Source: a virus
Lineage: Duplodnaviria > Heunggongvirae > Uroviricota > Caudoviricetes
Length of the DNA: 15,506 nucleotides
Virus record (IMG/VR): IMGVR_UViG_2703718798_000014
Location: 1 to 15,506 of that record
Direction: 5' to 3' (one strand)
How positions within the stretch are numbered: the first letter of the stretch is position 1; the number at the start of each line of letters is the position of its first letter. The notes under the pieces are model-generated. The model saw nothing but the letters and a program-made list of their open reading frames with translations. It did not search any database and was not told where the DNA came from. Positions 1 to 15,506 of the stretch are shown here, one piece after another. The position numbers and the translations under genes were made by a program.

Positions 1-440
1 GGCGCTCCCCTTCATTGGCAGATTGATTATGCCTGAGGATCTCTAAATGCGAATTGCACGATTATACGAAGTACTTAACAACGTTTTATAGAAGCTTACG
101 CTCCAACCTCTCTATCTGTAGTCTGTTACAGACTAATGATGCAGTAATCTGCAAAAAATGACCAACCAATAATGGAATATCACTACAGGTTAATCACTAT
201 TGTCAGATACAAACTGCATTTATGGTATAAAGGTATGTGATCTTTTCTATCCATACTTGGTCCGGCGTGATAATACTGAAGCCTTCTTACAAAAGGTTGT
301 ATGATACAGGCTGGTCATATTTATATGACCCGATTCTCTGCTGGCTACGCCAGCTACCACGTAAGCCGGGAAAATGACTTGAGGGTAAATTTGCATCTGC
401 AAGCCACTTCCCCTAATCTAGCACAAAATATAGAGATTCA

Positions 441-491
441 ACCAAACGACTCGGGGTGCCCTTCTGCGTGAAGGCTGAGAAATACCCGTAT
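441..491 (+). ncRNA. 5' portion of a TPP (THI-box) riboswitch aptamer, thiM-leader-like, truncated after ...GAGAAATACCCGTAT
   Basis: 441-491 (AACCAAACGACTCGGGGTGCCCTTCTGCGTGAAGGCTGAGAAATACCCGTAT) matches the E. coli thiM leader as I recall it, including the CUGAGA element. The expected continuation (CACCUGAUCUGG...GCGUAGGGAA) is absent; sequence diverges at 492. From memory, not a search. Confidence 0.6.
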
Positions 492-576
492 TTTCTCATT
501 TAGTGTTTTTTGCGGTTCGGGGGTGTTCGTGGTTGTTTGTGTATGTATTTGATATTAAATGAATTATTCTATTTTC

Positions 577-644
577 TTGTTTGTTGTTGTTCGTCGTTGT
601 TCGTAGAGCTTCAACAAAATGTGTGGTCAGTTGTGTGGTCAGTT
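577..644. repeat. Left copy of a ~75-bp imperfect direct repeat (triple TTGTT box plus tandem GTGTGGTCAGTT x2), 36 bp upstream of int
   Basis: 566-643 aligns with 15423-15497 with about 6 mismatches; tandem 12-mer GTGTGGTCAGTT at 621-632 and 633-644. Confidence 0.7.
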
Positions 645-679
645 TTTTGAGGCTGGAGGACTGAAAAGAGGATCTGATA

Positions 680-1915
680 GTGGGAAAAGCACTAAACAAA
701 CTGAGCGATTCGACGTTAAAAAAATTGGCGGCTGTCCAGGCAGAAAAAGAGCGTTTTTACTCCGACGGGGGCGGGCTGGAGATTAAACACTCAAAAGGCG
801 GCAAATTAACCTGGTATTTTCGGTACCGAACGGGAGGCCGTGAGGTCGCCGCAGAGCGGTTAAAGCTGGGGGCTTACCCTGAGCTGTCGCTGAAAGCTGC
901 TAGGGAAAAACGCACACAGTGCCGGTCATGGCTGGCTGAGGGTAAAAATCCCCGTTATGAGTTGTGCGCCACAGTACAGGAAGCATTAAAACCCGTTACG
1001 GTGAAGGAGGCGATTAACTACTGGCTGGAGGAATACGCGAAGGATAATCGCAAAGACTACATAAAACTGGTGCAACGTATGGATAAGCACATCATTTGCC
1101 ATATAGGGGCAATCCCTCTTGATAAATGCGATACAAGGCAGTGGATCGCATGTTTTGACCGTGTACGAAAAAAAGCACCAGTAGCAGCAGGGCACGTCAT
1201 GCAAACCTGCAAACAGGCGCTAAAGTTCTGCCGCAGGAGGCGCTACGCGTTCAGTAATGCCCTGGACGATTTGATCGTCAGCGATGTGGGTAAGAGAGCA
1301 GAAATTCGCGAGAGGGTACACAGTAACAGCGAATTAAAGGAAATTTTACGCGCTATCGATGGTGATGTGTTCGCGCCTTACTACAGCGCGTTAATGCGCT
1401 TGCTGATTGTGTTCGGGTGCAGAACGGCAGAGGTCAGACTTTCAGAGATCAAAGAATGGGATCTGAAAGAAATGTTGTGGACAGTGCCAAAAGAGCACAG
1501 CAAAACGAAGGTAACGATATTCAGGCCAATCCCCGATGGCATTTTGCCGTTCATTCAGAAGCTGGTGGAGCAGAACCGACATACAGGGTTATTGCTCGGA
1601 GAACTGAAAAAAGATACCACGGTAGCGCAATATGGGCGAAATGCGCATAAGCGGCTTAACCAGGAACACTGGTCGCTGCATGACTTTCGCCACACGTTTA
1701 CAACGATGATGAACGATTTAGGTGTCGATCCGCATATCGTGGAGCACATCACAGCGCATCAGATGCCCGGTCAGCAAAAAACCTATAACCATTCACGCTA
1801 TTTACAGGCAAAGCGTGACGCCCTTAATCTATGGGTAGACCGTCTCGAGCTTCTCCAGAACAATGATGAAAAAATCGTTGTTATGATCCCGCGAATTTAC
1901 ACCCAAAATTCTTGA
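680..1915 (+). CDS. int: Tyrosine recombinase / phage integrase (P4-type, N-terminal arm-binding domain)
   Basis: 411 aa ORF with GTG start and AAGAGG RBS 8 nt upstream. C-terminal catalytic signature HDFRHTF...HITAH...YNHSRY (R/H-x-x-R/H, tyrosine). Lies at the island edge next to the junction. Confidence 0.9.
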   Translation: MGKALNKLSDSTLKKLAAVQAEKERFYSDGGGLEIKHSKGGKLTWYFRYRTGGREVAAERLKLGAYPELSLKAAREKRTQCRSWLAEGKNPRYELCATVQEALKPVTVKEAINYWLEEYAKDNRKDYIKLVQRMDKHIICHIGAIPLDKCDTRQWIACFDRVRKKAPVAAGHVMQTCKQALKFCRRRRYAFSNALDDLIVSDVGKRAEIRERVHSNSELKEILRAIDGDVFAPYYSALMRLLIVFGCRTAEVRLSEIKEWDLKEMLWTVPKEHSKTKVTIFRPIPDGILPFIQKLVEQNRHTGLLLGELKKDTTVAQYGRNAHKRLNQEHWSLHDFRHTFTTMMNDLGVDPHIVEHITAHQMPGQQKTYNHSRYLQAKRDALNLWVDRLELLQNNDEKIVVMIPRIYTQNS

Positions 1916-1958
1916 CAAATTACGGCTGTTTTTCTTGCGAAAAATGGCCCTCTAAAAT

Positions 1959-1991
1959 AAATCGTCGAATATCGGCAAATATCGACGATTT
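1959..1991. promoter_or_regulatory. Inverted repeat with perfect 10-bp arms (AAATCGTCGA / TCGACGATTT, 14-bp spacer) downstream of int
   Basis: Arms at 1959-1968 and 1982-1991 are exact reverse complements. No clear U-run follows, so a protein-binding site is as likely as a terminator. Confidence 0.35.
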
Positions 1992-2323
1992 ATATGTGTC
2001 AAGTATTGAAAAAATTTGAAATGTCTTCTTCTGAGTTCTTATTCTCTGTTTCTTGATTGTTCCAACACCTGATGGTTTATCTATTTGTTTTTAATGAGGT
2101 AACTCAGGTGTCATGCCAAATGACGACATTTTTTGTTGCGTCGCTTAAAAACTCGTGACACGATTTCATGAACAGCAGCAAACTCTAGAGAACTTTGACG
2201 AACATAAAGTTCAGAAAGGTTACGTATTCAATTTAAGAGGTGAAAAAAGCTAAGAAGTAATCTTTTCCCGTATATCCACAGCGAAACAAAAATTTCTATA
2301 CGTAATTTTATGTAGGGCTTTTT

Positions 2324-2518
2324 ATGCGCGAAATAAATGAAGATCGTGTAATCCGCGAAAAAGAATGCAGAGAGCTAACAGGCGTTTGCCGCACAACTCG
2401 TTACGAGATGGAAAAACAAGGCCGCTTTCCCTCCCGTATCAGTCTTGGCGGTCGTTCGGTTGGCTGGATTAAGTCTGAGGTTGTCGCCTGGGTCAAAAAC
2501 CGCGAACGCGTCAATTAA
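2324..2518 (+). CDS. alpA: AlpA-family (Xis-like, MerR-type winged helix) transcriptional regulator
   Basis: 64 aa; motif ELTGVCRTTRYEMEKQGRFPSRISLGGRSVGWIKSEVVAWV matches the AlpA pattern TG..R.T.Y....G.FP....LG.R.VGW..SE...W. Position immediately after int is typical of P4-like elements and PICIs. Confidence 0.85.
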   Translation: MREINEDRVIREKECRELTGVCRTTRYEMEKQGRFPSRISLGGRSVGWIKSEVVAWVKNRERVN

Positions 2519-2550
2519 GAATATTCATTCTTTAAATTCCGTCCGTGTTT

Positions 2551-2577
2551 TTGTTTGTACTTGTTCGCGGTTGTTCG
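2551..2577 (+). promoter_or_regulatory. Triple-box module TTGTTTGTAC-TTGTTCGCGG-TTGTTCG (10-bp register)
   Basis: Boxes begin at 2551, 2561, 2571. The same module recurs at 577-603, 15426-15452 and, in variant form, 7910-7936; a looser copy at 514-540. Followed by SD TAAGGAG (2608-2614) and ATG 2624. Confidence 0.55.
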
Positions 2578-2676
2578 TGAAGAAAAGAAGCGGCGCGTAT
2601 GCACCGCTAAGGAGTTTATTTTCATGACTTATGCAGCTTTCAATCTTAGCACCGCCGTAGCTGGTGGACAAGGCTA

Positions 2677-2904
2677 TCAGCCAGGCGGTCGGTTTTTGCC
2701 GGATTTAAGCCGCCGTGGGTATTTCTCGACAAAATCTTCAAGGGCAAATTTTTCTGGTGGCACTAAGCGCGGCGCTGGTGGTGGTATTTTTGTTCTGGTT
2801 AGTTCTTCCTCAAGTCTGGCGCAGGCTTCTGACTGCCTTTGCCGGATGATTTCATCATCTTGCGTTTGCGTGTCTTGTATTGGTGATAGTGTGTTGTTGG
2901 TCAT
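2677..2904 (-). CDS. Hypothetical protein (75 aa), second gene of leftward regulatory pair
   Basis: ORF downstream of and co-directional with the RHH gene; charged, helical-looking composition; weak RBS. No recognised domain. Confidence 0.4.
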   Translation of the reverse strand: MTNNTLSPIQDTQTQDDEIIRQRQSEACARLEEELTRTKIPPPAPRLVPPEKFALEDFVEKYPRRLKSGKNRPPG

Positions 2905-2961
2905 GATACTGCCCTGTAAAGCAATGCGCCGGAGTACCTCACACCACGGCGCTGATAGTGA

Positions 2962-3141
2962 TTATTCTGATTCTTTGGCCTTACGGCGCTGGCGGCGTTT
3001 GATCTCGCCTCGCATGGCTGTAACGATAAATTGCGCAGTGCTCTCGCCTGTTTCTTTTACTTGCTCCATAGCCTCAACAACTTCATGCGGGGCGCGAGCC
3101 TGTAATTTCTGTGATTTGTTATTGATATGGTCTCTTTCCAT
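2962..3141 (-). CDS. Ribbon-helix-helix (CopG/Arc/MetJ-like) DNA-binding protein, candidate island repressor
   Basis: 59 aa ORF, below the ORF-track length cutoff, translated by hand: MERDHINNKSQKLQARAPHEVVEAMEQVKETGESTAQFIVTAMRGEIKRRQRRKAKESE. Segment LQARAPHEVVEAMEQVKETGESTAQFIVTAM fits the RHH beta-strand/helix A/G-x-S turn/helix B pattern. AGGGA RBS 8 nt upstream. Start abuts a triple-palindrome operator. Confidence 0.5.
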   Translation of the reverse strand: MERDHINNKSQKLQARAPHEVVEAMEQVKETGESTAQFIVTAMRGEIKRRQRRKAKESE

Positions 3142-3157
3142 TTCTGGTTCCCTTTGT

Positions 3158-3259
3158 GATTACTGGAATCCAGTATACACGAAAAAGACCAAAACAAAAC
3201 GCTTGAAGTGGATTCCACTTAGTGATTATACTGGAATCCAGTTGAGTGTTTATCACTCA
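3158..3259. promoter_or_regulatory. Divergent promoter/operator region: three related palindromes (ACTGGAaTCCAGT x2, AAGTGGAtTCCACTT) plus IR TTGAGTG-N5-CACTCAA; candidate rightward promoter TTGAAG-N18-TATACT
   Basis: Perfect palindromes at 3163-3175, 3206-3220, 3230-3242. O1 and O3 sit in ~22-bp direct repeats (TGATTA(TA)CTGGAATCCAGT). -35 TTGAAG 3203-3208 and -10 TATACT 3227-3232 are overlapped by O2 and O3. A second TATACT on the minus strand (complement of 3173-3178) could serve the RHH gene. Confidence 0.5.
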
Positions 3260-3338
3260 ATGCAAACGAGGCTGAAAAGGATTGCCGTCCTTTCGCAGCC
3301 TCTGACCACCAACGATAGCGAAAGTATCGAGGTAGCTA

Positions 3339-3538
3339 TGAGAAATCATACCACACACCCGCAAGGGCGGGACTCGCACAACCTGAATAAATTCACCTGG
3401 CGCTTTATGCAGTGCCTGACAGACAGCATTGCAATATTCACCGTTACCGCTGCCACTGAACGCGAAGCCCGCGCCCAGTTGCCGCACGCACATCTGATTT
3501 TTGTCGCCCGTATTCGTCAGGGGGTGTGCCATGCCTGA
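3339..3538 (+). CDS. Hypothetical protein (66 aa; alternative start 3260 gives 93 aa), first gene of rightward operon
   Basis: GAGGT RBS 5 nt upstream of ATG 3339; E. coli-preferred codons; stop overlaps next gene start (coupling). Strand assignment is uncertain: an antisense ORF (3257-3532) covers the same DNA. Confidence 0.35.
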
Positions 3539-3851
3539 TATGTCAAATTACCAGTACCTGATTAATCCGCATTTTAAGTGTGATCATGATATTGCTAAGA
3601 AGGTTTATTCCGCTGCTGATGGGGCTACTGACAATATATCAATGGGTATTGCGTCAATTGGTAGCCTTATGTTTCATGCGTCAGAAAATGAGGAATATGA
3701 CGAAAAGGCCATGCGCATTGATATGGGTAATATCGGTTTGTTACTGGCAATGCTTGGACATTTTGATATTTCGTTACGGTGCACCATTGAAAATGCCACA
3801 GATGCATTAAATGCCATAAAGAAAGCGAATACTGATTCAAATCGGGGATAA
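3531..3851 (+). CDS. Hypothetical protein (106 aa)
   Basis: ATG 3531 with AGGGGG RBS 6 nt upstream; overlaps previous stop. No recognised motif. Confidence 0.5.
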   Translation: MPDMSNYQYLINPHFKCDHDIAKKVYSAADGATDNISMGIASIGSLMFHASENEEYDEKAMRIDMGNIGLLLAMLGHFDISLRCTIENATDALNAIKKANTDSNRG

Positions 3852-3857
3852 ATAATC

Positions 3858-4157
3858 ATGAGAACGTATTTATCTGGCTTGACTGCCAGCGGTTATGCAC
3901 ATCCAAAAATTATCCCCGGCGCTATTTATCGGGATAAGAACGGCAACAGAGTAACAGTAAAATCGATAATGTTTGACCGTGTGTATTTTATTCGTGATGG
4001 CTATTCATTTCATAGCTCGCTGAACGTGGAGATCTTTATTTGCAGATTCCGGCGGGAAATTCCGCCTTCCAGAAATAACCATGTGTCATGTATGGATGTT
4101 GATAAAAAACTACAGGAACTGAAAAACATGATTGCCGCGTGGAGAGAGCAGAAATGA
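3858..4157 (+). CDS. Hypothetical protein (99 aa)
   Basis: ATG 3858 with GGGGA RBS; stop overlaps primase start (ATGA). Confidence 0.5.
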   Translation: MRTYLSGLTASGYAHPKIIPGAIYRDKNGNRVTVKSIMFDRVYFIRDGYSFHSSLNVEIFICRFRREIPPSRNNHVSCMDVDKKLQELKNMIAAWREQK

Positions 4158-5971
4158 AAAAAGCGCCAAATTTAAAACACCAGCCACGTGACAAAATGAC
4201 GGAAGTCATCATTTTTGCGGGTAGTGATGCGTGGGCACATGCGAAGCAGTGGCAGGAACAGGACGGGCGACTGGCTGGCGATAACGTGCCACCTGTCTGG
4301 CTTGGAGAGCAACAACTTGCCGAACTGGACAACCTGCAAATCGTACCGGACGGACGCTATCGCGTGCGTCTCTATCAGGCGGGGTTATTGCGTTCGGGGC
4401 TTGTTAATACCATCGGGCAGAAACTGGCAGCGGCAGGTGTCAGGGATGCTGATTATTACCCTGAAGGAATGCACAGCCAGAAACGGGAGAACTGGCGCGA
4501 ATATCTGGAACGTGAGCGGGGAGATCTGACGGAAAAGAAAAAGGTAGTTGAACTGCCTGTAAAGAAAAAAGAGCGGGTAAAAGACGATAACGCTTCATCA
4601 CTGGCGCTTAACCAGATGGGAGCAAGTCAACGCGGCGAAGTTCTCCTGGCACATTATGGCGGTGAACTGGCGATTAATGCTGACTCTGACACTGTTCACC
4701 ATTACAACGGCGTTGTATGGGAGCCAGTACAGGATAAAGAATTACAGCGAGCTATGGCACAGATTTTCATTGATGCGGAGATCAGCTATTCGCAGAACGC
4801 CATTAAATCGGCGGTCGATACCATGAAGTTAAGTTTGCCTGTAATGGGGAATACAGCCCGTAACCTGATTGGATTCAGTAACGGGGTATTTGATACCCGT
4901 ACAGGTGATTTCCGTGAACACGATAAAAATGACTGGCTGTTAATTGCCAGTGAGTTACCGTTCACTCCACCAGCAGAAGGTGAAACGCTGGCAACACATG
5001 CGCCGAATTTCTGGAAGTGGTTACGCCGTTCGGTGGCTGAGAATGACCGCAAGGCAGATCGCGTTCTGGCAGCGTTATTTATGGTGCTGGCGAACCGGTA
5101 CGACTGGCAGTTATTCATTGAGGTAACAGGTCCAGGGGGAAGTGGTAAAAGCGTGATGGCGGAGATTTGCACCATGCTGGCGGGTAAGGCCAACACAGTA
5201 TCGGCAAGCATGAAGGCGCTGGAAGATGCAAGGGAACGCGCGTTAGTGGTTGGCTTTTCGCTGATTATCATGCCGGATATGACCCGCTACGCTGGTGATG
5301 GGGCAGGAATTAAGGCCATTACAGGCGGTGACAAGGTGGCAATTGACCCGAAACACAAAGCCCCCTACTCAACGCGTATTCCGGCAGTAGTGCTGGCGGT
5401 TAACAATAACGCCATGTCATTCAGTGACCGCAGCGGGGGGATCTCGCGCCGTCGGGTGATATTCAATTTTTCGGAAGTTGTACCGGAGAACGAACGCGAT
5501 TCAATGCTGGCGGAAAAAATAGAAGGTGAGCTGGCGGTAGTGATTCGTCATCTGCTTACACGGTTTGCTGACCAGGACGAAGCCAGACGCCTTTTATATG
5601 AGCAGCAGAAATCAGAAGAAGCACTCGCGATAAAGCGTGAAGGTGATTCGCTGGTGGACTTCTGCGGCTATCTCATGGCGTCGGTAATGTGTGATGGCCT
5701 GTTAGTGGGTAATGCTGAAATTGTGCCATTCAGCCCGCGCAGGTATCTCTATCATGCCTATCTGGCTTATATGAAGGCACATGGGTTTGGTAAACCTGTA
5801 ACACTGACGCGCTTCGGTAAAGATATGCCGGGGGCAATGGCGGAATATGGCAGGGAGTATATGAAACGGAAAACGAAGCACGGTTTGCGTTCAAACGTGA
5901 CACTGACGGAGGAATCAGAAGACTGGATGCCGTCATGTGTATCGGTCACTAATGACGATAGCAAAAATTAA
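4154..5971 (+). CDS. DNA primase/helicase, P4-family (SF3 helicase-type NTPase)
   Basis: 605 aa from ATG 4154 (GGAGAG RBS 7 nt upstream; the track start 4139 is an upstream GTG). Walker A GPGGSGKS in ...FIEVTGPGGSGKSVMAEI...; Walker B-like LIIMPD. Followed directly by an iteron array of the P4 ori type. Confidence 0.85.
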   Translation: MKKAPNLKHQPRDKMTEVIIFAGSDAWAHAKQWQEQDGRLAGDNVPPVWLGEQQLAELDNLQIVPDGRYRVRLYQAGLLRSGLVNTIGQKLAAAGVRDADYYPEGMHSQKRENWREYLERERGDLTEKKKVVELPVKKKERVKDDNASSLALNQMGASQRGEVLLAHYGGELAINADSDTVHHYNGVVWEPVQDKELQRAMAQIFIDAEISYSQNAIKSAVDTMKLSLPVMGNTARNLIGFSNGVFDTRTGDFREHDKNDWLLIASELPFTPPAEGETLATHAPNFWKWLRRSVAENDRKADRVLAALFMVLANRYDWQLFIEVTGPGGSGKSVMAEICTMLAGKANTVSASMKALEDARERALVVGFSLIIMPDMTRYAGDGAGIKAITGGDKVAIDPKHKAPYSTRIPAVVLAVNNNAMSFSDRSGGISRRRVIFNFSEVVPENERDSMLAEKIEGELAVVIRHLLTRFADQDEARRLLYEQQKSEEALAIKREGDSLVDFCGYLMASVMCDGLLVGNAEIVPFSPRRYLYHAYLAYMKAHGFGKPVTLTRFGKDMPGAMAEYGREYMKRKTKHGLRSNVTLTEESEDWMPSCVSVTNDDSKN

Positions 5972-5984
5972 ACTTATGGAATAA

Positions 5985-6213
5985 CTGTTCACCACTGTTC
6001 ACCCTGTCATAAATATCTTTTATATCAGTATATTATAGGGTGAACAGTTATTTATGAACTGTTCACCAAACTATTCACTGTTCACCTTTTTGATTGTTTA
6101 TTGAGCTTCAAGGGTGAACAGTGGTGAACAGTTGGTGAATAGTTTTTGTGAAACTGTTCACCCCTTAACATTATGAATTAAAAGATAAAATATCAAAAGG
6201 TGAACAGGTGAAG
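5985..6213. repeat. Replication origin: at least 9 exact copies of the octamer core TGTTCACC / GGTGAACA in both orientations (plus degenerate copies), flanking an AT-rich segment
   Basis: Direct (CTGTTCACC) at 5985, 5995, 6059, 6078, 6154, with degenerate 6071. Inverted (GGTGAACAG) at 6039, 6113, 6123, 6199, with degenerate 6134 and 6208. AT-rich 6010-6038. Octamer matches the P4 ori/crr type I iteron as I recall it. Confidence 0.75.
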
Positions 6214-6258
6214 GGTTAAAACGCAAAAATTTTAATTTACTGCTGTGAGATAAAGCCT

Positions 6259-6504
6259 ATGACAGCGAAGCACACAAAAAAATCACAATCGCACGCCCTT
6301 GATTTGACGGAACACTGGTTAAGGGTGTCGATAAAAATCATCGACCGCAACGCCGGGGAAGGATATGCGAAAGCACATCCCGAACTGATTAGCGCATTCA
6401 TGACAACGGCAGCTGCAAACTTTGCCACGCTGACAGAACGGGAGATTGCCGAAGCGGAACAGGTAACAACCATCAACGTTAAAACCGGAGAGGTGGAATC
6501 ATGA
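6259..6504 (+). CDS. Hypothetical protein (81 aa)
   Basis: First ORF after ori; no clear RBS; stop overlaps next start. Confidence 0.45.
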   Translation: MTAKHTKKSQSHALDLTEHWLRVSIKIIDRNAGEGYAKAHPELISAFMTTAAANFATLTEREIAEAEQVTTINVKTGEVES

Positions 6505-6806
6505 GCGAACCAAAATTTGGTGAAAAATTTTACAAGCACAACGGACGGATCACGATTCTGCAAATAAGCGCAGCTACACCAGGCTGGTGGGTTGAAACAG
6601 ACGAAGGATCCTCACCTGTGGCATCATGGGCGCTTTGTGTGCTTAGTTACCCTGACCGCGATGTGTATCAGGATATTCTGCCTGTGATATCCACTGACAA
6701 AGGCATGAAACCCGTAGACATCAAAAACATGGGTTTTCAGTGTGTAATGCTCACTGAAAAAATGATGGAAGAGATGAAAAAGAACAACGCCGGATCGCTT
6801 CACTGA
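6501..6806 (+). CDS. Hypothetical protein (101 aa)
   Basis: GGAGAGGTGG RBS; ATGA overlap with previous gene. Confidence 0.55.
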   Translation: MSEPKFGEKFYKHNGRITILQISAATPGWWVETDEGSSPVASWALCVLSYPDRDVYQDILPVISTDKGMKPVDIKNMGFQCVMLTEKMMEEMKKNNAGSLH

Positions 6807-6815
6807 GGTGGCAAT

Positions 6816-7226
6816 ATGACAGCACAAATTGCAGCTTACGGGCGGCTGGTGGACGACCCGCAGGTAAAACAGACCAGTAAGGGCACACCGATGACGCTGG
6901 CGCGTATGGCGGTATCGTTGCCATGTAGTCAGGCGCAGGATGGGCAGGCGACGTTATGGCTATCGGTCATCGCATTTGGTAAGCAGGCCGACTTCCTGGC
7001 TAAACATCAAAAAGGCGACGTTGCCAGCGTATCCGGCACGATGCAGGTCAGCCAGTGGACCGGACAGAACGGGGAAACGCGGCAGGGTTATCAGGTTATT
7101 GCAGACAGCGTAATCAGTGCCCGTGCGGCACGTCCTGGCGGGAACAGACGCAAAACCACAGGCACACAGGGTAATCAGCCACCAGCGGGAGGCGATGACC
7201 CTTACGGTGACGGTATTCCGTTCTGA
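6816..7226 (+). CDS. ssb: Single-stranded DNA-binding protein (OB-fold, SSB family) with short C-terminal ...DDPYGDGIPF tail
   Basis: GAGGTGG RBS. N-terminal YGRLVDDPQV...; core WLSVIAFGKQADFLAKHQKGDVASVSGTMQVSQWTGQNGETRQ aligns by eye with E. coli SSB (W..V..FGK.A....KG......G....WT...G); C-terminal GIPF resembles the DIPF tip. Confidence 0.75.
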   Translation: MTAQIAAYGRLVDDPQVKQTSKGTPMTLARMAVSLPCSQAQDGQATLWLSVIAFGKQADFLAKHQKGDVASVSGTMQVSQWTGQNGETRQGYQVIADSVISARAARPGGNRRKTTGTQGNQPPAGGDDPYGDGIPF

Positions 7227-7236
7227 GGGGGTGGCG

Positions 7237-7509
7237 ATGGTACATGACCGCATAGCGGAAGAACTCGAGGCGAAAGGCTTTTACCGGAGGGCGGCGGCGC
7301 GATGGGGTGAAGTCATGCTGCTGGTGGAGACAGACAAGGAACGGCATCAGGTTACGATGCGACGGCTGGAATGTTCCAGGAAGGCACAGAAGCCACCGGA
7401 GCCGCCGGATAACTTCGGAGACCTGAGAAAGGCAGTAGATCGCACTTATGCTGAAATGGGTATAGATGGTGTAAGCGATGAAATATGGCGTAATTACCCA
7501 GACAGCTAA
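7237..7509 (+). CDS. Hypothetical small protein (91 aa); possibly PerC-like regulator (tentative)
   Basis: ATG 7237 with GAGGGGG RBS (the track start 7117 is an upstream extension overlapping ssb). Motif EELEAKGFYRRAAARWGEVM resembles my recollection of PerC-family proteins; unverified. Confidence 0.5.
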   Translation: MVHDRIAEELEAKGFYRRAAARWGEVMLLVETDKERHQVTMRRLECSRKAQKPPEPPDNFGDLRKAVDRTYAEMGIDGVSDEIWRNYPDS

Positions 7510-7514
7510 TCAAC

Positions 7515-7538
7515 AGCCGGAGAAATCCGGCTTTTTTT
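7515..7538 (+). terminator. Rho-independent terminator (stem AGCCGGA / TCCGGCT, GAAA loop, T7 run)
   Basis: Perfect 7-bp stem 7515-7521 / 7526-7532, tetraloop GAAA, then TTTTTTT; directly after the stop of the 7237-7509 gene. Confidence 0.65.
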
Positions 7539-7633
7539 GCACCAGTTGAAACGGTATGGCGCATTACCGGGTTTTCGTCACGGTCAGGCATAGTTACTAT
7601 CTGAAACAAACAGACACAACAGAGGAAAAAACA

Positions 7634-7858
7634 ATGCCGATGAAATTTGATGAGATATTAAAACAGCGTGATAAATACCATGCTGACAACATGGAGACGA
7701 TGAGCATCAATGATTACCGCGCATTCCTGGAGACGGGCGCACTGATTGAAAAGGATCAGCATGGTTTTGTGAGATGTGCTCTGTCCGGTGAAATGCTGGC
7801 GGTAAATCCTGAACAGATAGATGCATTGATAGAATTTCTGAAAGGGATCAGGGACTGA
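7634..7858 (+). CDS. Hypothetical protein (74 aa)
   Basis: ATG 7634 with AGAGGA RBS 7 nt upstream (the track start 7556 is an upstream extension). Flanked by two near-identical terminators. Confidence 0.5.
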   Translation: MPMKFDEILKQRDKYHADNMETMSINDYRAFLETGALIEKDQHGFVRCALSGEMLAVNPEQIDALIEFLKGIRD

Positions 7859-7868
7859 GCACGCATAC

Positions 7869-7890
7869 AGCCGGAGCAATCCGGCTTTTT
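7869..7890 (+). terminator. Rho-independent terminator (same stem AGCCGGA / TCCGGCT, GCAA loop, T5 run)
   Basis: Stem 7869-7875 / 7880-7886 identical to the 7515 terminator; T-run follows. Confidence 0.6.
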
Positions 7891-7909
7891 GTCATTTTTT
7901 GTAAATTAT

Positions 7910-7936
7910 TTGTTCGTGGTTGTTCCACGTTGTTCA
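7910..7936 (+). promoter_or_regulatory. Triple-box module TTGTTCGTGG-TTGTTCCACG-TTGTTCA upstream of the head/packaging operon
   Basis: Boxes at 7910, 7920, 7930 in exact 10-bp register; 215 bp upstream of the capsid ATG; third box (TTGTTCAC) also resembles the ori iteron. Confidence 0.5.
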
Positions 7937-8001
7937 CTGACAGGATCGGCATATTTTACCCGAACTGAATCATGAGTATTCTCGCCCGTGGTGCCAGGAC
8001 G

Positions 8002-8049
8002 CTGGGGCCACTTTCCCGCCTGTTAATGTGCTCGCCAATATTCATTACC
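8002..8049. promoter_or_regulatory. Long inverted repeat (11-bp perfect arms TTTCCCGCCTG / CAGGCGGGAAA, 26-bp spacer) in the capsid-operon leader
   Basis: Arms 8002-8012 and 8039-8049 are exact reverse complements. Confidence 0.35.
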
Positions 8050-8112
8050 AGGCGGGAAAACGATCGGTGCGATTGCTGATTTCCTTATGAAAAACGGTTG
8101 AGTTTTTGCCGC

Positions 8113-8150
8113 GTCCTGGAGTTCCTTACTTAACCCCAGGACTTTTTTTT
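8113..8150 (+). terminator. Intrinsic-terminator-like hairpin plus T8 run ending at the capsid start codon (candidate attenuator or antitermination target)
   Basis: Stem TCCTGGAGTT (8114-8123) pairs with AACCCCAGGA (8132-8141) with one mismatch; T8 at 8143-8150; ATG at 8151. No Shine-Dalgarno can fit between hairpin and ATG. Confidence 0.5.
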
Positions 8151-9308
8151 ATGCCGAGAATAATCGAATTACGCCAGCAGAAAACCGCCATTAAAAATCA
8201 GATGCGCGACATGCTGGAGAACGCGGAAAAAGAAAACCGCAGCCTTAACGATGCAGAGGGCGCAAAATTTGACGAATTACGCGCTAAAGCTGAATCCCTC
8301 GATAAAGACATTTCCCGCCTTGAAGCCATTGCAGACGAAGAGCGCAGCAAGCCAGGTAAAAGCAGCCAGACCACTGACCCGGCAGAACTCCGCAACTACA
8401 TCCTGACAGGTGAAACCCGCGCATTAAGTACAGGCGTTCCCGCTGATGGTGGTTATACCGTTATCCCCGAACTGAACACCGAAATCATGCGAATGCTGAC
8501 GGATGAATCCACCATGCGCCGCATCTGTACCGTGAAGAAAATCAGCAGCAACGAGTTTAAGCAGCTTGTTTCCGCTGGCGGTGCGACCGTTAACCACGGT
8601 GAAGAGGGTAAGACACGCGAACAGACCAGCACCCCGCAGATTAACGAGGTGAGCATTAAGCTGTATCCGGTCTATGCGTACCCGCGCACCACACAGGAAA
8701 TCGTGGATTTTTCCGATGTGGACATCCTTTCATGGCTGACGGGTGAGATTGGCGACACCTTCACGGAAACCGAAGAAAGCGATCTGGTTGTGGGCGACGG
8801 TGACAAAAAAGCAAAAGGTTTTTTATCCGTACCCCGTGCAGAGAAGAACGACAAAGAGCGTGATTTTGGTACGTTGCAGGTAATTAAACCTTCCGAATCT
8901 CTGGCGTGGACATCTGCGGACCCGCTGATCGACCTGAAATTTGCATTACGTAAAAAATACCGCAAAAACGCGGTCTGGGTGGTTAACTCCACGACGGCGG
9001 CAAAACTTCAGAAGGTGAAGAACGCGAACGGTGATTACATCTGGCGCGACCGTTTACAGGCTGGTGATCCTGATACGTTGCTGGGCCTTCCGGTCGAATA
9101 TCTGGAGTTTATGCCTGATAACGTTATTGCCCTGGGTGACTTCAAACGCGGTTACTACATTGTTGATCACGAAACAGGTGTTCGCACCAGACCGGACAAC
9201 CTCACAGAGCCGGGCTTCATCAAAATTTTCACGCAGAAATATTTAGGCGGTGGCGTGGTGGATTCGAACGCGATCAAGATTCTGGAACTGCCACAGGACG
9301 ACGATTAA
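8151..9308 (+). CDS. Major capsid protein, HK97 fold, with N-terminal delta (scaffold-like) domain
   Basis: 385 aa from ATG 8151 (the track start 8106 is an upstream TTG). N-terminal coiled-coil-like IELRQQKTAIKNQMRDMLENAEKENRSLNDAEGAKFDELRAKAESLDKDISRLEA; C-terminal half resembles HK97 gp5 by eye (...GDYIWRD...LLGLPVEY...GDFKRGYYIVDHETG...). Confidence 0.9.
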   Translation: MPRIIELRQQKTAIKNQMRDMLENAEKENRSLNDAEGAKFDELRAKAESLDKDISRLEAIADEERSKPGKSSQTTDPAELRNYILTGETRALSTGVPADGGYTVIPELNTEIMRMLTDESTMRRICTVKKISSNEFKQLVSAGGATVNHGEEGKTREQTSTPQINEVSIKLYPVYAYPRTTQEIVDFSDVDILSWLTGEIGDTFTETEESDLVVGDGDKKAKGFLSVPRAEKNDKERDFGTLQVIKPSESLAWTSADPLIDLKFALRKKYRKNAVWVVNSTTAAKLQKVKNANGDYIWRDRLQAGDPDTLLGLPVEYLEFMPDNVIALGDFKRGYYIVDHETGVRTRPDNLTEPGFIKIFTQKYLGGGVVDSNAIKILELPQDDD

Positions 9309-9318
9309 CAGCATACAG

Positions 9319-9347
9319 AAGGGGCTTAAAAGCCCCTTTAGTGTTTT
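9319..9347 (+). terminator. Stem-loop (AAGGGGCTT / AAGCCCCTT) after the capsid gene; partial terminator or stability element
   Basis: Perfect 9-bp inverted repeat 9319-9327 / 9330-9338, followed by T-rich TTTAGTGTTTT; sits between capsid stop and protease start. Confidence 0.4.
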
Positions 9348-9920
9348 ATGGGTGAAAAAATTATGAAGAGTATGGAAATCCGGTCATCGGAAATCACCAC
9401 CAGCGCCAGCAACACGCTTACAGGCTACGTTGTTCGCTGGGATAAGCTTTCAGAGCTGCTATGGGGGGAGTTTTACGAAAAATTCCAGCGGGGAGCGTTT
9501 ACTGAATGGCTTGCGGCGGGTAATGACGTTCGCGGCCTGTATGAGCATGACCACAGCATGTTGCTGGGGCGTACCCGTTCCGGCACGCTGAAACTGGAAG
9601 AGGACGAAACAGGGTTACGCTTTGAACTGACCCCACCGGATACCAGTACAGGGCGCGACGTTATCGAACTGGTTAAGCGTGGGGACATCTCGGGGATGAG
9701 CTTTGGCTTTCGCTCCCGTAAGGATGTATGGGATACCACAACAGATCCATGCGTGCGCACCGTGCTGGTGGCGGAACTGTACGAAATTACCGTTACATCG
9801 GTACCGGCTTACCCCGATTCCGGCGTGGAGCTGGCCCGCCGTTCCCTGTATGAGCAGCACCCCGAAAAAATGCCGCGTGCGGATAATCGCCGCTGGTGGG
9901 TGGATTTAGCGGGGGTGTGA
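9348..9920 (+). CDS. Prohead maturation protease, HK97 family (peptidase S78)
   Basis: Motifs TGYVVRWD, YEHDHSMLLGRTRSGTL, GRDVIELVKRGDISGMSFGF, ITVTSVPAYPDSG match the HK97 gp4-type protease pattern. Start ambiguous (ATG at 9348, 9363 or 9372). Confidence 0.85.
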   Translation: MGEKIMKSMEIRSSEITTSASNTLTGYVVRWDKLSELLWGEFYEKFQRGAFTEWLAAGNDVRGLYEHDHSMLLGRTRSGTLKLEEDETGLRFELTPPDTSTGRDVIELVKRGDISGMSFGFRSRKDVWDTTTDPCVRTVLVAELYEITVTSVPAYPDSGVELARRSLYEQHPEKMPRADNRRWWVDLAGV

Positions 9921-9921
9921 T

Positions 9922-11133
9922 ATGTGGCTTTTCAGAAGAAAAAAAGAGCAGCGCAGCATGACGCTTGATGAATTTATGGCGCTGGCTGGCACATCGAACA
10001 CGGGGGCGGGTGAGTACGTATCATCGGGGACAGCGGAATCACTGCCCGCCGTCATGAACGCCGTGACGGTCATCTCTGAGGCGGTGGCTACCATGCCGTG
10101 TTACCTGTACCTGGTACGCAATGAGAAGGGTAAGGAGGCCCGCGAGTGGCTTGATTCTCATCCGGTCGATCATATCCTCAACGAGCGCCCGAACGCATGG
10201 CAAACCCCCTACCAGTTTAAGCGAATGATGATCCGCCACTGCCTGTTAAACGGTAATGCTTACGCGGTGATTCAGTGGGGGCGTGATGGTTTTCCGGCGG
10301 CTTTACATCCTTACCCGCCGCAGTCGGTGAACGTGGAGCAGACAGGAGAACACAACTGGCGCTATTGCATCACTGACGCCTACACCGGAAACACCCGCAA
10401 CTATTTACCGTGGGAAGTACTTCACCTTCGTTACTCCACGGATGACGGCTTTATGGGGCGCTCACCTGTAACCATCTGCCGCGAATCGCTGGGGCTTGGG
10501 CTGGCCCAACAACGCCACGGCGCGAGCGTGATGCGTGATGGCATGATGGCGGCAGGGGTTATCACGTCAGGCGAATGGCTGGACGGCGTGAAAGGCAAAC
10601 AGGCATTAGCCGCACTGGAACGCTACAAAGGGGCCAGAAACGCCGGAAAAACGCCCATCCTTGAAGGGGGCATGAGTTACCAGCAGCTGGGCATGAGTAA
10701 CCAGGACGCCGAATGGCTGGCCTCCCGTCGCTTCACCATTGAAGACATCGCCCGAATGTTCAACGTCTCGCCGATTTTTCTGCAGGAATACAGCAACAGC
10801 ACCTACAGCAATTTCAGCGAGGCAAGCCGCGCATTTCTCACCATGACGATGCGCCCGTGGCTGGCGAACTTTGAGCAGCAGATAAAAAACGCCTTGCTGG
10901 TGGTCTCGCCTGTACCTGGTATCCGGTATCAGGTGGAGTTTGACAGCGCGGACCTGTTACGGGCCACACCTGGCGAACGCTTTGCCACCTATGAGCGAGG
11001 CATCAAATCCGGTGTTATGTGCCCGAACGAAGCCCGCGAACGAGAAGGGTTGTCTCCGCGTGATGGTGGTGATGAGTTCAGCCAGGCATGGAAACAGGAA
11101 GTAAAAATCAGCGAGGGAGAAAAACCGGAATGA
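9922..11133 (+). CDS. Portal protein, HK97 family
   Basis: 403 aa; portal-like motifs ERPNAWQTPYQF, LLNGNAYAVIQW, GRSPVTICRESLGLGLA, DAEWLASRRFTIEDIARMFNVSPIFL, NEAREREGL. GGGGGTG RBS; position after protease. Confidence 0.9.
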   Translation: MWLFRRKKEQRSMTLDEFMALAGTSNTGAGEYVSSGTAESLPAVMNAVTVISEAVATMPCYLYLVRNEKGKEAREWLDSHPVDHILNERPNAWQTPYQFKRMMIRHCLLNGNAYAVIQWGRDGFPAALHPYPPQSVNVEQTGEHNWRYCITDAYTGNTRNYLPWEVLHLRYSTDDGFMGRSPVTICRESLGLGLAQQRHGASVMRDGMMAAGVITSGEWLDGVKGKQALAALERYKGARNAGKTPILEGGMSYQQLGMSNQDAEWLASRRFTIEDIARMFNVSPIFLQEYSNSTYSNFSEASRAFLTMTMRPWLANFEQQIKNALLVVSPVPGIRYQVEFDSADLLRATPGERFATYERGIKSGVMCPNEAREREGLSPRDGGDEFSQAWKQEVKISEGEKPE

Positions 11134-11468
11134 ACATAGGGCGACTGCGTGACAGGGTAACGATTCAGACCCTGAAACAGACCAGAGCCATGACGGGCGA
11201 AATACTCGAAACGTGGGAGGACGGTCACACACTCTGGGCAAGCGTGAACATGGTCAGCAGCAAGGAGGCCATTTCATCGGGTGCAGAGCTGGCGATTGGT
11301 ACCGTAAGGATCTGGATACGGTACCGGAAGGACATCAACGCCACCAGCCGGATAAAGGTCAATACGGGGCCGCTGGCGGGGCGTGTACTGAATATCATCG
11401 GGCAGCCGCTGCCGGATGCCGCCAGGACACGCCTTGAAATTCTTTGTCGTGAGGGCGCGGAAAAATGA
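11130..11468 (+). CDS. Head closure / head-tail joining protein (Phage_H_T_join-like)
   Basis: 112 aa from ATG 11130 (ATGA overlap with portal stop; the track start 11088 is an upstream extension). N-terminus MNIGRLRDRVTIQ and ...WASV...IRYRKDI... fit the head-tail joining family pattern. Confidence 0.7.
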   Translation: MNIGRLRDRVTIQTLKQTRAMTGEILETWEDGHTLWASVNMVSSKEAISSGAELAIGTVRIWIRYRKDINATSRIKVNTGPLAGRVLNIIGQPLPDAARTRLEILCREGAEK

Positions 11469-11761
11469 CAGAAGAACTTATCACCCTGGAAGAAGTGAAA
11501 CTCCATTGCCGCATCGATGGCGACGAGGAAGACCAGTTAATCAGCGGATACATTGCCGCATCGCTTGAGGCGTGCCAGATACACATAGGCAGGCGCTTTG
11601 ATGACGGGCTGGAGTTCACGCCAGCCATAAAGATTGGCTGCATGATGTTTATCGCTCACCTGTATGAGAATCGCCAGATTGTCGCGGATAACGCAAAAAC
11701 ACACGTACCCATGACGATTGGCGCACTCTGGACGGCTTACCGTGATGTGGGGGTGTACTGA
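11465..11761 (+). CDS. gp6-like head-tail connector (DNA-packaging) protein
   Basis: 98 aa; N-terminus LITLEEVKLHCRIDGDEEDQLISGYIAASLEACQIHIGRRF matches the gp6-like connector pattern; start overlaps previous stop. Confidence 0.7.
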   Translation: MTEELITLEEVKLHCRIDGDEEDQLISGYIAASLEACQIHIGRRFDDGLEFTPAIKIGCMMFIAHLYENRQIVADNAKTHVPMTIGALWTAYRDVGVY

Positions 11762-12201
11762 TGCCGTGGCAACCATTAAGACGATGTACAGAACCAGGCT
11801 GCAACAGGCGCGTGAAGTCCGGCAAGTGTGAGGAGCACAGACGCAGCGCACGCCAGCAGCAGGACAGCCGGAGAGGCAGCAGCAGGGAGCGAGGGTATAC
11901 GAGGCAGTGGGAGAAATACCGCGCCATGTATCTGAGTAAAAACCCGTTATGTGCGCATTGCCTGGAAAAAGGAATATACACGCCCGCCGTGGTGGTGGAT
12001 CACATTATCCCAATCGATGGCGGTAATGATGTTCTCTTCTGGCCTGAGTGGAATCATCAGCCATTGTGCCAGGCGTGTCATAACCAGAAAACGAAATGGC
12101 TTGATCCGTCCACAAAAAACAAGCGTGCTGCGGGTGGATTCCGTGAGGAGGAAGAACGGGCCGCTAACCGCAATAACTGGATGTATGGCGCTGATGAATG
12201 A
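11761..12201 (+). CDS. HNH endonuclease (packaging-associated)
   Basis: 146 aa; zinc-finger/HNH signature CTEPGCNRRVKSGKCEEH...NPLCAHCL...VDHIIPIDGGND...NHQPLCQACHNQKT. Position just upstream of the terminase genes is typical of HNH/cos-packaging HK97-like heads. Confidence 0.85.
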   Translation: MPWQPLRRCTEPGCNRRVKSGKCEEHRRSARQQQDSRRGSSRERGYTRQWEKYRAMYLSKNPLCAHCLEKGIYTPAVVVDHIIPIDGGNDVLFWPEWNHQPLCQACHNQKTKWLDPSTKNKRAAGGFREEEERAANRNNWMYGADE

Positions 12202-12367
12202 GCGGGAACAAAACCGCCTTATCCGTGGACTTATAAGGCAGCGTGACGCATGGAAGGCACAGGAAACAGGGCATAAAGATAAAGCATCAGGACGCGCAGA
12301 ACGCATCACAGCGACGCGATTAAACGACCGTGACCGCGAGGTTATGGAATGTTTCCGCAATCGCTGA
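12194..12367 (+). CDS. Possible small basic protein (57 aa) between HNH and cos candidate
   Basis: ATG 12194 (or 12185), weak RBS, overlaps HNH stop. Product MNEREQNRLIRGLIRQRDAWKAQETGHK... The track ORF 11951-12367 is an upstream extension overlapping HNH. Confidence 0.3.
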   Translation: MNEREQNRLIRGLIRQRDAWKAQETGHKDKASGRAERITATRLNDRDREVMECFRNR

Positions 12368-12370
12368 TGA

Positions 12371-12489
12371 GGCAGCCGGACGGGGTGGGGGGAGTTTTCA
12401 GGACGAACCCGACCCCGCCCAGAACCGAACGCCTCCTCAAATTTTTATGCACGGGAATTTTTTGAAAAATAATCTGGCGAAAAATAAGC
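12371..12489. other. Candidate cos (terminase recognition/cleavage) region: G-rich imperfect inverted repeat followed by AT-rich A-tract DNA
   Basis: GGACGGGGTGGGG (12378-12390) and CCCGACCCCGCCC (12408-12420) are imperfect inverse complements; then AAATTTTTATGCACGGGAATTTTTTGAAAAATAAT. Located between HNH and TerS as in HK97-like cos phages. Confidence 0.35.
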
Positions 12490-12846
12490 ATGGCAAGACC
12501 ACCGAAAGTCCCCGCCTACCTGGATGACATCGCCGTGAAGCAGTGGCGGGAAAAATCGCGGCAGCTTGCGGAACGGGGAGACCTGACCCCCGCCGACTGG
12601 AGCAATCTGGAACTGTATTGTGTCAACTACTCCATTTACCGGAAAGCCGTTGCAGACCTTGCGGCGCGCGGGTTCAGCATTGTTAACAGTCAGGGCGGCG
12701 AGAGCAGAAACCCCGCATTAAGCGCAAAATCCGACGCTGAAAGAGTGATGATAAAAATGGCCTCCTTGCTCGGTTTTGACCCGATAAGCCGCCGTAAAAA
12801 TCCACCGGAAACAGAAGAAGAGGACGAGCTTGACCGCCTGGAATAA
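12490..12846 (+). CDS. terS: Terminase small subunit (P27 / HK97 gp1 family)
   Basis: 118 aa; pattern ...AVKQWREKSRQLAERGDLTPADWSNLELYCVNYSIYRKAVADL...SRNPALSAKSDAERVMIKMASLLGFDPISRRK matches P27-family small terminase; stop overlaps TerL start. Confidence 0.85.
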   Translation: MARPPKVPAYLDDIAVKQWREKSRQLAERGDLTPADWSNLELYCVNYSIYRKAVADLAARGFSIVNSQGGESRNPALSAKSDAERVMIKMASLLGFDPISRRKNPPETEEEDELDRLE

Positions 12847-14491: not shown

Positions 14492-14504
14492 TGAGGTCAG
14501 CAGC

Positions 14505-14786
14505 ATGACAGAAGCCGAAATAACGGGATTAATCCGCCGCGTTGCCGGAATCAGCCAGCAGGCTGACGAACAGGCCACGCAGCCGGACAGCGTGACAGCC
14601 GAAAACTATGCGCGTGTTGTTGCTGAGGTGATGCGCCGTGATGGTATAGAACTTAATGGCGTGGATATGCGCAACATACGAACCAGAGTTCTTGAGTTGC
14701 TGGCCTACCGTCGCCGCGTGGAGATGTATCGGGAGAAGGAGAAAATAACGTACCACTGGAAGAAGCCGGAGCGGTTGCGGCGGTAA
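14505..14786 (+). CDS. Hypothetical protein (93 aa) downstream of TerL
   Basis: GAGGT RBS 7 nt upstream of ATG 14505; basic C-terminus. No recognised motif. Confidence 0.5.
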   Translation: MTEAEITGLIRRVAGISQQADEQATQPDSVTAENYARVVAEVMRRDGIELNGVDMRNIRTRVLELLAYRRRVEMYREKEKITYHWKKPERLRR

Positions 14787-15081
14787 CTGGTTGATATTCC
14801 CGACGGACCAAAAATGGGTGGCTACATCCCTCGCTTCTGAGGACTGTTAACAAGCTGCCTGAAAGACAGTCACAAACTACGAAATTTTCGCAGTTTAATT
14901 AATGATCAGCTTAATCGCTAACCCGCTGATATTTTCGGAAACCTCAATTTGAGGAAGTCGGCGCGGTAACTCGCTGAACTTTAAGCAAAGTGCAAAATTG
15001 CGCTTGCTGAATAATCATTATGATTACGCAGATGATTAAGGAATGACCGAAGGCGGAAATTCGCCTGTGGTTAATGGGGGA

Positions 15082-15362
15082 GTTGCAGATCTGCAACTCG
15101 ACCATGAAACTACGGAAACTACCCGTAGTTTGGGTAGTAAGAGTAACACCCAGATTTTGGGTCTTACTCGTGATACCCAAATTTGGGGTATCAGTGGCAA
15201 CCATAACGACTTTCGTTACGGTTGATGCTTTTACCCCATTGGGGGAAAGGTATTACGATAATCATAACACCTACCGAACAGGTAAAGCCCACCAGCCTGA
15301 TTAACGTTTAACCGGAAAAAAATTCCGGTAGGTGGGGATCCCCATATCGGGGAACATCCACC
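15082..15362. other. Palindrome-dense non-coding segment (8 or more distinct inverted repeats), candidate structured RNA or multi-protein recognition site
   Basis: GTTGCAGATCTGCAAC (15082-15097); AAACTACGG/CCGTAGTTT (15107-15131); nested AGTAAGA...ACCCAGATTTTGGGT...TCTTACT (15136-15168); GATACCCAAATTTGGGGTATC (15172-15192); CCCCATTGGGG (15234-15244); CCGGAAAAAAATTCCGG (15312-15328); GGTGGGGATCCCCATATCGGGGAACATCCACC (15331-15362). No plausible ORF. Confidence 0.45.
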
Positions 15363-15497: not shown

Positions 15498-15506
15498 GGT
15501 TTTTAA

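Follow-up and report, generated by a model that had tools for sequence, protein, structure and literature searches.

What protein reads a 27-bp module of three related heptamers that recurs across a phage satellite, and which functions would its binding connect? The DNA analysed here (IMG/VR record IMGVR_UViG_2703718798_000014, positions 1 to 15,506; 15,506 nucleotides in all, hereafter the window) is a satellite of the capsid-forming phage-inducible chromosomal island (cf-PICI) type inserted in the thiM leader, and five places in it carry three heptamers each, spaced exactly 10 bp apart. A first-pass annotation of the sequence had read them as AlpA- or Xis-type boxes that tie excision to the late operon; this reading is now the best supported one, given the arrays in the attP arms, their likeness to the sites of the recombination directionality factor (RDF) TorI, the co-variation of the boxes with AlpA and the conservation of the array upstream of the head operon. 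We consider it probable that AlpA binds the triple boxes, which would make the 27-bp module an AlpA operator array, and we hold with greater confidence the broader claim that the triple box is a functional protein-binding site of some kind. The arrays and the two genes most closely concerned with them are as follows:

513-539, + strand: looser, core-proximal array of the P' arm (cGGTTCG / GTGTTCG / TTGTTTG, 10-bp register)
577-603, + strand: int-proximal array of the P' arm (TTGTTTG / TTGTTCG / TTGTTCG, exact)
2551-2577, + strand: post-alpA triple-box array (exact match), accessory and lineage-specific
7910-7936, + strand: head-operon array (TTGTTCG / TTGTTCC / TTGTTCA), 215 bp upstream of the capsid ATG (8151)
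15426-15452, + strand: array of the P arm, on the attR side (exact match)
680-1915, + strand: int, tyrosine integrase with an N-terminal arm-binding domain (Pfam Arm-DNA-bind_3, 5.6e-18; Phage_integrase, 8e-17)
2324-2518, + strand: alpA, 64-aa winged-helix regulator/excisionase and putative box binder (Pfam Phage_AlpA, 7.5e-16)

A search of the window with the pattern TTGTTYG-N3-TTGTTCG-N3-TTGTTCG returned three arrays without mismatch (577-603, 2551-2577 and 15426-15452) and the head-operon array (TTGTTCG/TTGTTCC/TTGTTCA) with 2 mismatches, and all arrays found sit on the + strand; the TTGTTYG triple pattern had 0 matches in 200 dinucleotide-preserving shuffles of the window. The loose array at 513-539 was scored with a position weight matrix (PWM) built from related arrays, for which the array threshold was set at 17; its triple score of 19.1 exceeded the null maximum of 16.8 reached in 200 window shuffles. 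Pattern and PWM searches thus agree on a three-box module at five loci in 10-bp register, as had been claimed at first pass, and the placements then given relative to genes (upstream of int, after alpA, upstream of the head operon and in the right-end repeat) stand as stated; the loose copy, then put at 514-540, does exist, but its true register lies one base to the left. A minus-strand, degenerate four-box run upstream of the window's alpA (~2169-2205) fell below its own shuffle null and was not accepted as a sixth copy.

The comparative set comprised ~100 related loci overall, drawn from IMG/VR and from annotated Escherichia coli genomes and cited here by L numbers where needed; a profile search of genome contigs with the AlpA alignment yielded 2 loci only. 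In a PWM scan of ~86 related loci, arrays scoring at least 17 numbered 32 upstream of int, 23 in the right arm, 22+7 in the int-alpA spacer, 21 before the capsid gene and 3 after alpA; none at that score lay outside these five non-coding contexts. The boxes are conserved in these islands. The looser array recurs at the same place in L001, L043, L047 and L049-L054, with a C-type version in L004-type arms. The int-alpA spacer arrays of relatives are on the opposite strand and have 3 to 6 units; such clear inverted arrays occupy the spacer in other islands, and in those of a second AlpA class strong inverted arrays of 3-6 boxes lie just downstream of int, ~290 bp upstream of alpA (for example L075 1254-1310 on the minus strand, L060-L086 and L004 5082-5108). 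A marginal PWM hit upstream of alpA in thiM-type islands (L001 19342-19368) was discarded as the two arms of a terminator-like hairpin.

The positions of three of the arrays are defined by the attachment site and by a second repeat that accompanies them:

478-491, + strand: att core at the left junction, AGAAATACCCGTAT, inside the leader of thiM that holds its thiamine pyrophosphate (TPP) riboswitch
620-643, + strand: two exact copies of TGTGTGGTCAGT, putative Int arm-type sites of the P' arm
15469-15492, + strand: two exact copies of TGTGTGGTCAGT, putative Int arm-type sites of the P arm

The 14-mer AGAAATACCCGTAT is common to attL and attR of the O157 island L001, in which thiM follows attR; the window itself stops ~60-70 bp short of the right att core. 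With the core at 478-491, the arrays at 513-539 and 577-603 fall in the P' arm and that at 15426-15452 falls in the P arm of attP. The right-end array of L001 lies ~125 bp before its attR core. Within the window a 71-bp direct repeat (577-647 against 15426-15496, 94% identical) unites the two arms; the box arrays form its first third, and it runs on into two tandem copies of TGTGTGGTCAGT, the exact doubled form being confined to the two arms. The order core, arrays, doubled motif is common to attL and attR of L001, L003 and L004 and to the left junction of the window, the motif centres of L001 standing ~85 bp upstream and ~148 bp downstream of the core centre. Beside the core, the segment at window 492-512 (TTTCTCATTTAGTGTTTTTTG) is conserved as TTTTATCATTTAGTGTTTTTTG in islands with quite different integration sites (its equivalent in L004 lies at ~3615-3635), and it may be an Int or host-factor site.

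This arrangement raises the possibility, also entertained at first pass, that the boxes are themselves the arm-type sites of the N-terminal domain of Int, in which case the internal copies would be regulatory sites of Int or relics of old att arms. The boxes do flank the core on both arms in direct orientation, Int does carry an Arm-DNA-bind_3 domain, and the integrases of P4 and of KplE1 (IntS) repress their own promoters. That role is, however, better filled by the doubled 12-bp motif, of which every arm array has its own adjoining copy pair. The same two-arm plan, a phased TTGTTYN array followed by a doubled 12-mer, occurs at three other integration sites (cspD/clpS, tqsA and others), and the sequence of the doubled motif tracks the N-terminal type of Int, of which there are five or six:

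Int type W (window): doubled motif TGTGTGGTCAGT
Int type S: doubled motif GGTGTAGT(C/T)A(A/C)T
Int of L056: doubled motif GTGTAGTCATC
Int of L046: doubled motif TGTGTATTGCA, the motif published for helper-embedded PICIs

Because the layout is P4-like and the motif changes with the N-terminal type of Int, we assign the doubled motif to the Int arm-binding domain and infer that the doubled TGTGTGGTCAGT copies are Int arm-type sites; the match for L046 suggests that the published doubled motif of helper-embedded PICIs is likewise an Int arm site. Between Int types W and S the doubled motif changes, but the form TTGTTYG of the boxes does not. Nor are they confined to attP, since three contexts remote from att (behind alpA, between int and alpA, and before the capsid gene) hold arrays that lack a doubled motif; their core equals that of the TorI (RDF) sites of KplE1, unlike the IntS arm sites with their TAAA motif; and position 7 of the box differs between arms of one Int type and follows AlpA instead. 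We therefore reject Int as the reader of the boxes, a role that we hold to be unlikely for it.

The proposal that AlpA is the binder draws on this last observation, on the precedent of KplE1 and on the occurrence at regulatory places of arrays that lack Int motifs. Where the predicted recognition helix region of AlpA reads RTTRYE, box position 7 is G in 69/82 non-head boxes, and where it reads R[ST]CRYR, position 7 is C in 54/77. A natural recombinant separates the two dependencies: the arms of L003-type and L005/L063-type islands are homologous and agree in Int strand region and doubled motif, yet the boxes of L003 (AlpA type 1) are TTGTTCG/TTGTTCG/CTGTTTG/TTGTACG while those of L063 (AlpA type 2) are TTGTTCC/TTGTTCC/TTGTACC/TTGTGCA. 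It thus appears that the doubled motif follows Int and box position 7 follows AlpA, although, because independent lineages are few, the co-variation is supportive rather than conclusive. The protein itself belongs to PHROG 2790 ('excisionase and transcriptional regulator'), matches PDB entry 8C3T ('AlpA family') with an E-value of 2.7e-7, and is 27% identical to TorI (pairwise E 5e-5) and 32% identical to AlpA of E. coli K-12. In the island EcCICFT073, over-expression of AlpA induces excision and replication while the activity of the int promoter, Pint, is unchanged, excision being Int-dependent, and AlpA activates its own and downstream genes (PMC6092414). Mutation of alpA abolishes induction and transfer of the cf-PICI EcCIEDL933. 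In the PICI literature searched, no DNA target of AlpA is defined, and a full-text search there for box or motif strings returned nothing relevant.

If AlpA does bind the triple boxes, the array upstream of the capsid gene bears on what it would do apart from excision. The features of that region are:

7897-7909, + strand: TTTTGTAAATTAT, invariant element abutting box 1 (from the alignment)
7955-7982, + strand: putative weak sigma-70 late promoter (-35 TTTACC at 7955-7960, 16-nt spacer, -10 TATTCT at 7977-7982)
8113-8150, + strand: terminator-like hairpin with U8 that closes a ~160-nt structured leader and is followed at once by the capsid ATG

In an alignment of the regions before the capsid gene of diverged cf-PICIs, a single block, TTTTGTAAATTAY with the three boxes, was invariant. 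The flanks on either side of it have diverged beyond recognition between lineages, and the block is kept even in the most distant islands, L055-L057, whose capsid protein is 63-64% identical. The 13-mer at 7897-7909 occurs once in the window and once, at the same position, in each of 21 related capsid-module loci, and it is absent from the other 68 related loci. Downstream of box 3 a predicted -35 element starts after 16-18 bp in all cf-PICI lineages examined, in a promoter of the form TTTAC(A/C)-N16-TATnyT, with these variants:

L029 type and L055/L056: -35 TTTACA, -10 TATGTT
L057: -35 TTTACA, -10 TATCTT
L030: -35 TTTATC, -10 TATTCT

The box centres lie at about -56, -66 and -76 from the predicted start, a geometry that suggests an upstream activator acting on a weak promoter. 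The promoter is itself a prediction, because it scores below the threshold of the consensus scan and its start site comes from prediction only; the sigma-70 consensus scan of the window placed no promoter near any array and did not place Pint.

Two terminator hairpins that are 96% identical (7513-7536 and 7867-7890, ACAGCCGGAG(A/C)AATCCGGCTTTTT) bracket a small open reading frame (ORF) at 7556-7858 (PHROG 1957) just upstream of this region. We suggest, tentatively and as something short of likely, that TTTTGTAAATTAY and the three boxes form a portable late-promoter cassette, in which case AlpA would be both excisionase and direct activator of the capsid and terminase genes. The boxes of the cassette end in G, C and A, so that it could be readable by either AlpA allele class; if so, a capsid module could pass freely from one satellite to another even where the two differ in int-alpA module and integration site.

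The leader that follows the predicted promoter allows a different role for AlpA at the same array, that of a loader for processive antitermination past the leader hairpin. In Pseudomonas aeruginosa, AlpA lets the polymerase bypass intrinsic terminators just upstream of its target genes (PMC7969949), which provides a precedent, and the capsid leader (7989-8150) is strongly structured (fold z = -3.7), with its hairpin and U8 placed directly before the ATG; a similar hairpin, with U7 and then the ATG, precedes alpA in L001 (19335-19371). Yet the P. aeruginosa element (GGGACG-N5-GGTA) lies between -35 and -10 (PMC7969949), whereas the window boxes lie 16-18 bp upstream of the predicted -35, and the leader hairpin is not conserved in the L029 lineage of cf-PICIs, which keeps the array. 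A sequence search of the PDB (E up to 1) matched the window's AlpA to 8C3T only, which we take to mean that it has no detectable similarity to the P. aeruginosa protein. Antitermination of this kind is unlikely on these grounds, and activation from upstream is the role we prefer for AlpA here. The capsid leader has no obvious Shine-Dalgarno sequence, and such hairpin-ATG leaders may serve attenuation or translational control.

A binder other than AlpA or Int was also considered: it might be the PerC-family protein or a different small protein of the island, or else a host protein such as an OmpR-family response regulator, with 10-bp direct repeats as its target. The PerC-family gene (7237-7509) does lie just upstream of the head-operon array, and the boxes of TorR (CTGTTCATAT) form decameric direct repeats whose TGTTC core is similar. 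PerC was rejected as the head-operon binder, the gene being absent from 9/22 loci with the signature and present in 14 loci without it. A host factor, for its part, would account neither for the dependence of position 7 on the AlpA allele nor for the restriction of the arrays to att and regulatory sites of satellites, and we judge a third-party binder very unlikely.

The array after alpA fits the AlpA reading less readily. It lies between the alpA stop (2518) and the following element:

2589-2608: GC-rich hairpin, terminator-like on the minus strand (terminator scan)

This hairpin reads as the terminator of convergent minus-strand genes, at 2962-3141 (PHROG 949, annotated as YlcI/YnfO family in related islands) and possibly at 2677-2904. 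The first-pass placement of the array just after alpA is correct in position; it does not lie upstream of a + strand gene, since it abuts the hairpin. Its boxes follow one another as in the arm arrays (TTGTTTG, TTGTTCG, TTGTTCG). The post-alpA array is tied to one alpA allele (window, L007 and L008), and in L009 (~1876-1892) it has two units, a clean 10-bp unit deletion; islands with other alpA alleles lack it, the alpA stop running straight into the terminator. The array may be an accessory AlpA site, acting as an auto-regulatory sink, as a roadblock to convergent transcription or as a looping partner of the arm array. The link to replication suggested at first pass is not supported, as the array does not precede replication genes, belongs to one alpA allele lineage only and is reduced to 2 units in L009.

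Replication is represented elsewhere in the window. Immediately behind the primase gene, at 5985-6207, stands a cluster of ten matches to the iteron CTGTTCACC in both orientations; two more lie inside that gene (4661-4700), and 5985-6207 is likely the replication origin. Degenerate primase or replicase iterons, a second alternative raised at first pass, or functionless repeats spread by duplication could be imagined as the source of the boxes, given that boxes and iteron have TGTTC in common and that an arm-like 18-mer (TTGTTTATTGAGCTTCAA) occurs at 6094-6111 inside the origin region. However, no CTGTTCACC match coincides with a box array, the iteron role being taken by the clustered CTGTTCACC copies instead, and the same head-operon and arm arrays accompany primases that are 47% to 98% identical to that of the window. 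The boxes are conserved while spacers and flanks have diverged, which argues against neutral repeats, and we reject this explanation as extremely improbable. An 18-mer family, TTGTTCGTAGAGCTTCAA (597-614, 6094-6111 and 15446-15463), joins the last box and the following GAGCTTCAA of both arms; its origin-region member is 83% identical to the arm copies, and a shared host-factor site is possible.

Several points weigh against AlpA as the reader of the boxes. The co-variation spans roughly seven array contexts versus four and includes one recombinant class (L003/L015/L039), and none of the 16 stretches searched combined Int type W with AlpA type 2. Islands of either AlpA class have head-operon arrays, and position 7 varies there among G, C and A, which would mean that AlpA specificity is loose or tolerant at that site. 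The late promoter there is predicted from conservation and lies below the sigma-70 scan threshold, with a box spacing that varies by 2 bp between lineages, and for the array at 2551-2577 no target promoter is apparent, most relatives doing without that copy. It is also less common for both arms to carry arrays than for one arm to do so, as with lambda Xis. The KplE1 study, too, maps the TorI sites on attL (PMC2951348). Identity between TorI and the window's AlpA is just 27%, and a single-sequence AlphaFold model of AlpA had a mean predicted local distance difference test score of 52.8 and was not used for a fold search. What is shown is that the arrays exist, where they lie, that they are conserved and that they co-vary with AlpA; binding by AlpA and its effects are inferred from this.

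We propose the following course of events. One AlpA monomer would contact each heptamer TTGTTYG (core GTTYG), and the 10-bp register would align three monomers on one face of the helix, allowing cooperative binding and bending. On the int side of attP, two arrays stand between the core and the doubled putative Int arm sites, and on the other side one array stands beside such sites; bound at these arms, AlpA would act as an RDF, shaping attL and attR for Int-mediated excision, and it may also modulate the int promoter. At the head operon it would act from upstream as a class I-like activator. AlpA induced by the helper would in this way couple excision to the production of capsid and terminase.

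Such an operator would be defined by the core GTTYG, the 10-bp register and 2 to 6 units. AlpA is the master switch of Gram-negative phage-inducible chromosomal islands, and the model would offer a mechanism for the excision of EcCICFT073 that AlpA over-expression brings about at unchanged int promoter activity. It predicts direct control by AlpA, by way of a conserved cassette, over the capsid and packaging operon in capsid-forming satellites. It also supplies a signature by which att arms and late promoters might be found in new satellites, and by which doubled Int 12-mers can be told from RDF sites.

The remaining content of the window accords with its assignment. A D5-type primase gene (4139-5971) and an SSB gene are followed in the right half by the HK97-type capsid gene (8151-9308) and, by Pfam, other late genes for prohead protease, portal, head completion and connector proteins, HNH, and small and large terminase; among the window proteins scanned, none was recognised as a tail or lysis protein. 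The element thus combines the features of a cf-PICI: int, alpA, a primase, its own capsid and packaging genes, a size of ~15 kb and a dedicated att site. Annotated E. coli islands cover 76-87% of the window at 93-97% identity, and the O157 island L001 has the same thiM site and the same layout; EcCIEDL933 is the published prototype of capsid-forming PICIs.

Scans of the window with Rfam at gathering thresholds and for tRNAs gave nothing. Sub-threshold matches to the TPP riboswitch occur at both junctions (17.9 bits at attL and 36.9 bits at attR, the Rfam threshold being 54.3); the 5' part of the aptamer stays at attL (window 442-541) and its 3' part at attR (L001 32829-32911), where the match uses ~20 nt of island sequence. 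The satellite splits the thiM TPP riboswitch, and the regulation of thiM in carriers may therefore be altered. In the non-coding right end, upstream of the P arm, a palindrome with a perfect centre (15071-15108) and several ACCCA...TGGGT palindromes (15071-15195) could be a packaging site or a small RNA.

Among known systems, the sites of lambda Xis (X1-X1.5-X2) are three head-to-tail sites about one helical turn apart on which a bent protein-DNA filament forms in an att arm; lambda Xis acts on one arm only and is not known to activate late genes. The closest likeness is with KplE1 (CPS-53) of E. coli K-12. On its attL, the mapped TorI sites, with cores GTTCG/GATCG/GTCCG, fall into two groups: two sites lie distally, and three of 8 bp each, separated by 2 nt, form a block that abuts the -35 element of PintS, while the arm sites of IntS have a TAAA motif and are closer to intS (PMC2951348). 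The TorI-site sequence reads CAGTTCGTcaTGGTTCGCttCAGATCGTTGACA, next to TTGTTCGT / TTGTTCGC for the window boxes. The two systems share the core, the 10-bp period, a triple block with a looser second block, a small winged-helix RDF as (in the window, putative) binder, and the order core, boxes, Int sites, int, which in the window becomes core (478-491), loose array, tight array, doubled Int motif and int. They differ in that TorI falls below the Pfam Phage_AlpA threshold, represses PintS and has sites described on attL only (PMC2951348), whereas the window has arrays also on the other arm, after alpA and before the capsid operon.

P4 Vis and CP4-57 AlpA belong to the same family as the window's AlpA, Vis matching Pfam Phage_AlpA at 1.7e-20. 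P4 carries annotated tandem 12-bp 'attP arm sequence repeat' features ~75 and ~134 bp from the core on either side; on its int side, the stretch from the core to the arm repeats holds xTCCG boxes phased by 10 bp, and CP4-57 has such boxes immediately before the doubled repeat. In place of GTTCG, these elements have GTCCG/TTCCG as box core. From the sequence, we read the P4 xTCCG boxes as candidate Vis sites. Vis is needed for P4 excision, and Vis and Int repress Pint; the late genes of P4 are controlled by Delta/Ogr and are not known to depend on Vis-type boxes before a capsid operon. The doubled motif of helper-embedded PICIs (tgTGTATTGCa x2), described in a 2023 study, resembles TGTGTGGTCAGT x2 in its doubling, its co-orientation and its similar distances from the core, 81 upstream and 132 downstream; the study left the binder open between the Int arm domain and AlpA, and TTGTTYG arrays were not reported (PMC10111431).

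Phage 186 Apl and P2 Cox belong to a different protein family from AlpA, and in satellite P4 the late promoter PLL is activated by P2 Cox. The sites of RDFs are as a rule direct repeats with a spacing of one helical turn, and Apl is active both at promoters and at att (PMC7498355). With Apl and Cox our proposal shares one small protein at att and promoters, with excision tied to a developmental switch (PMC7498355). The difference is that those proteins are mainly repressors at pR-pL, whereas in the window the target would be the satellite's capsid and packaging operon, with predicted activation. In the literature searched, three things appear to be undescribed: an operator for AlpA in Gram-negative PICIs, the distinction between it and the doubled Int motif, and the conserved box cassette before the capsid operon of capsid-forming satellites. 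An excisionase that doubles as a regulator on phased repeats is established for Apl, Cox, Vis and TorI, and what we propose here would therefore extend a known design.

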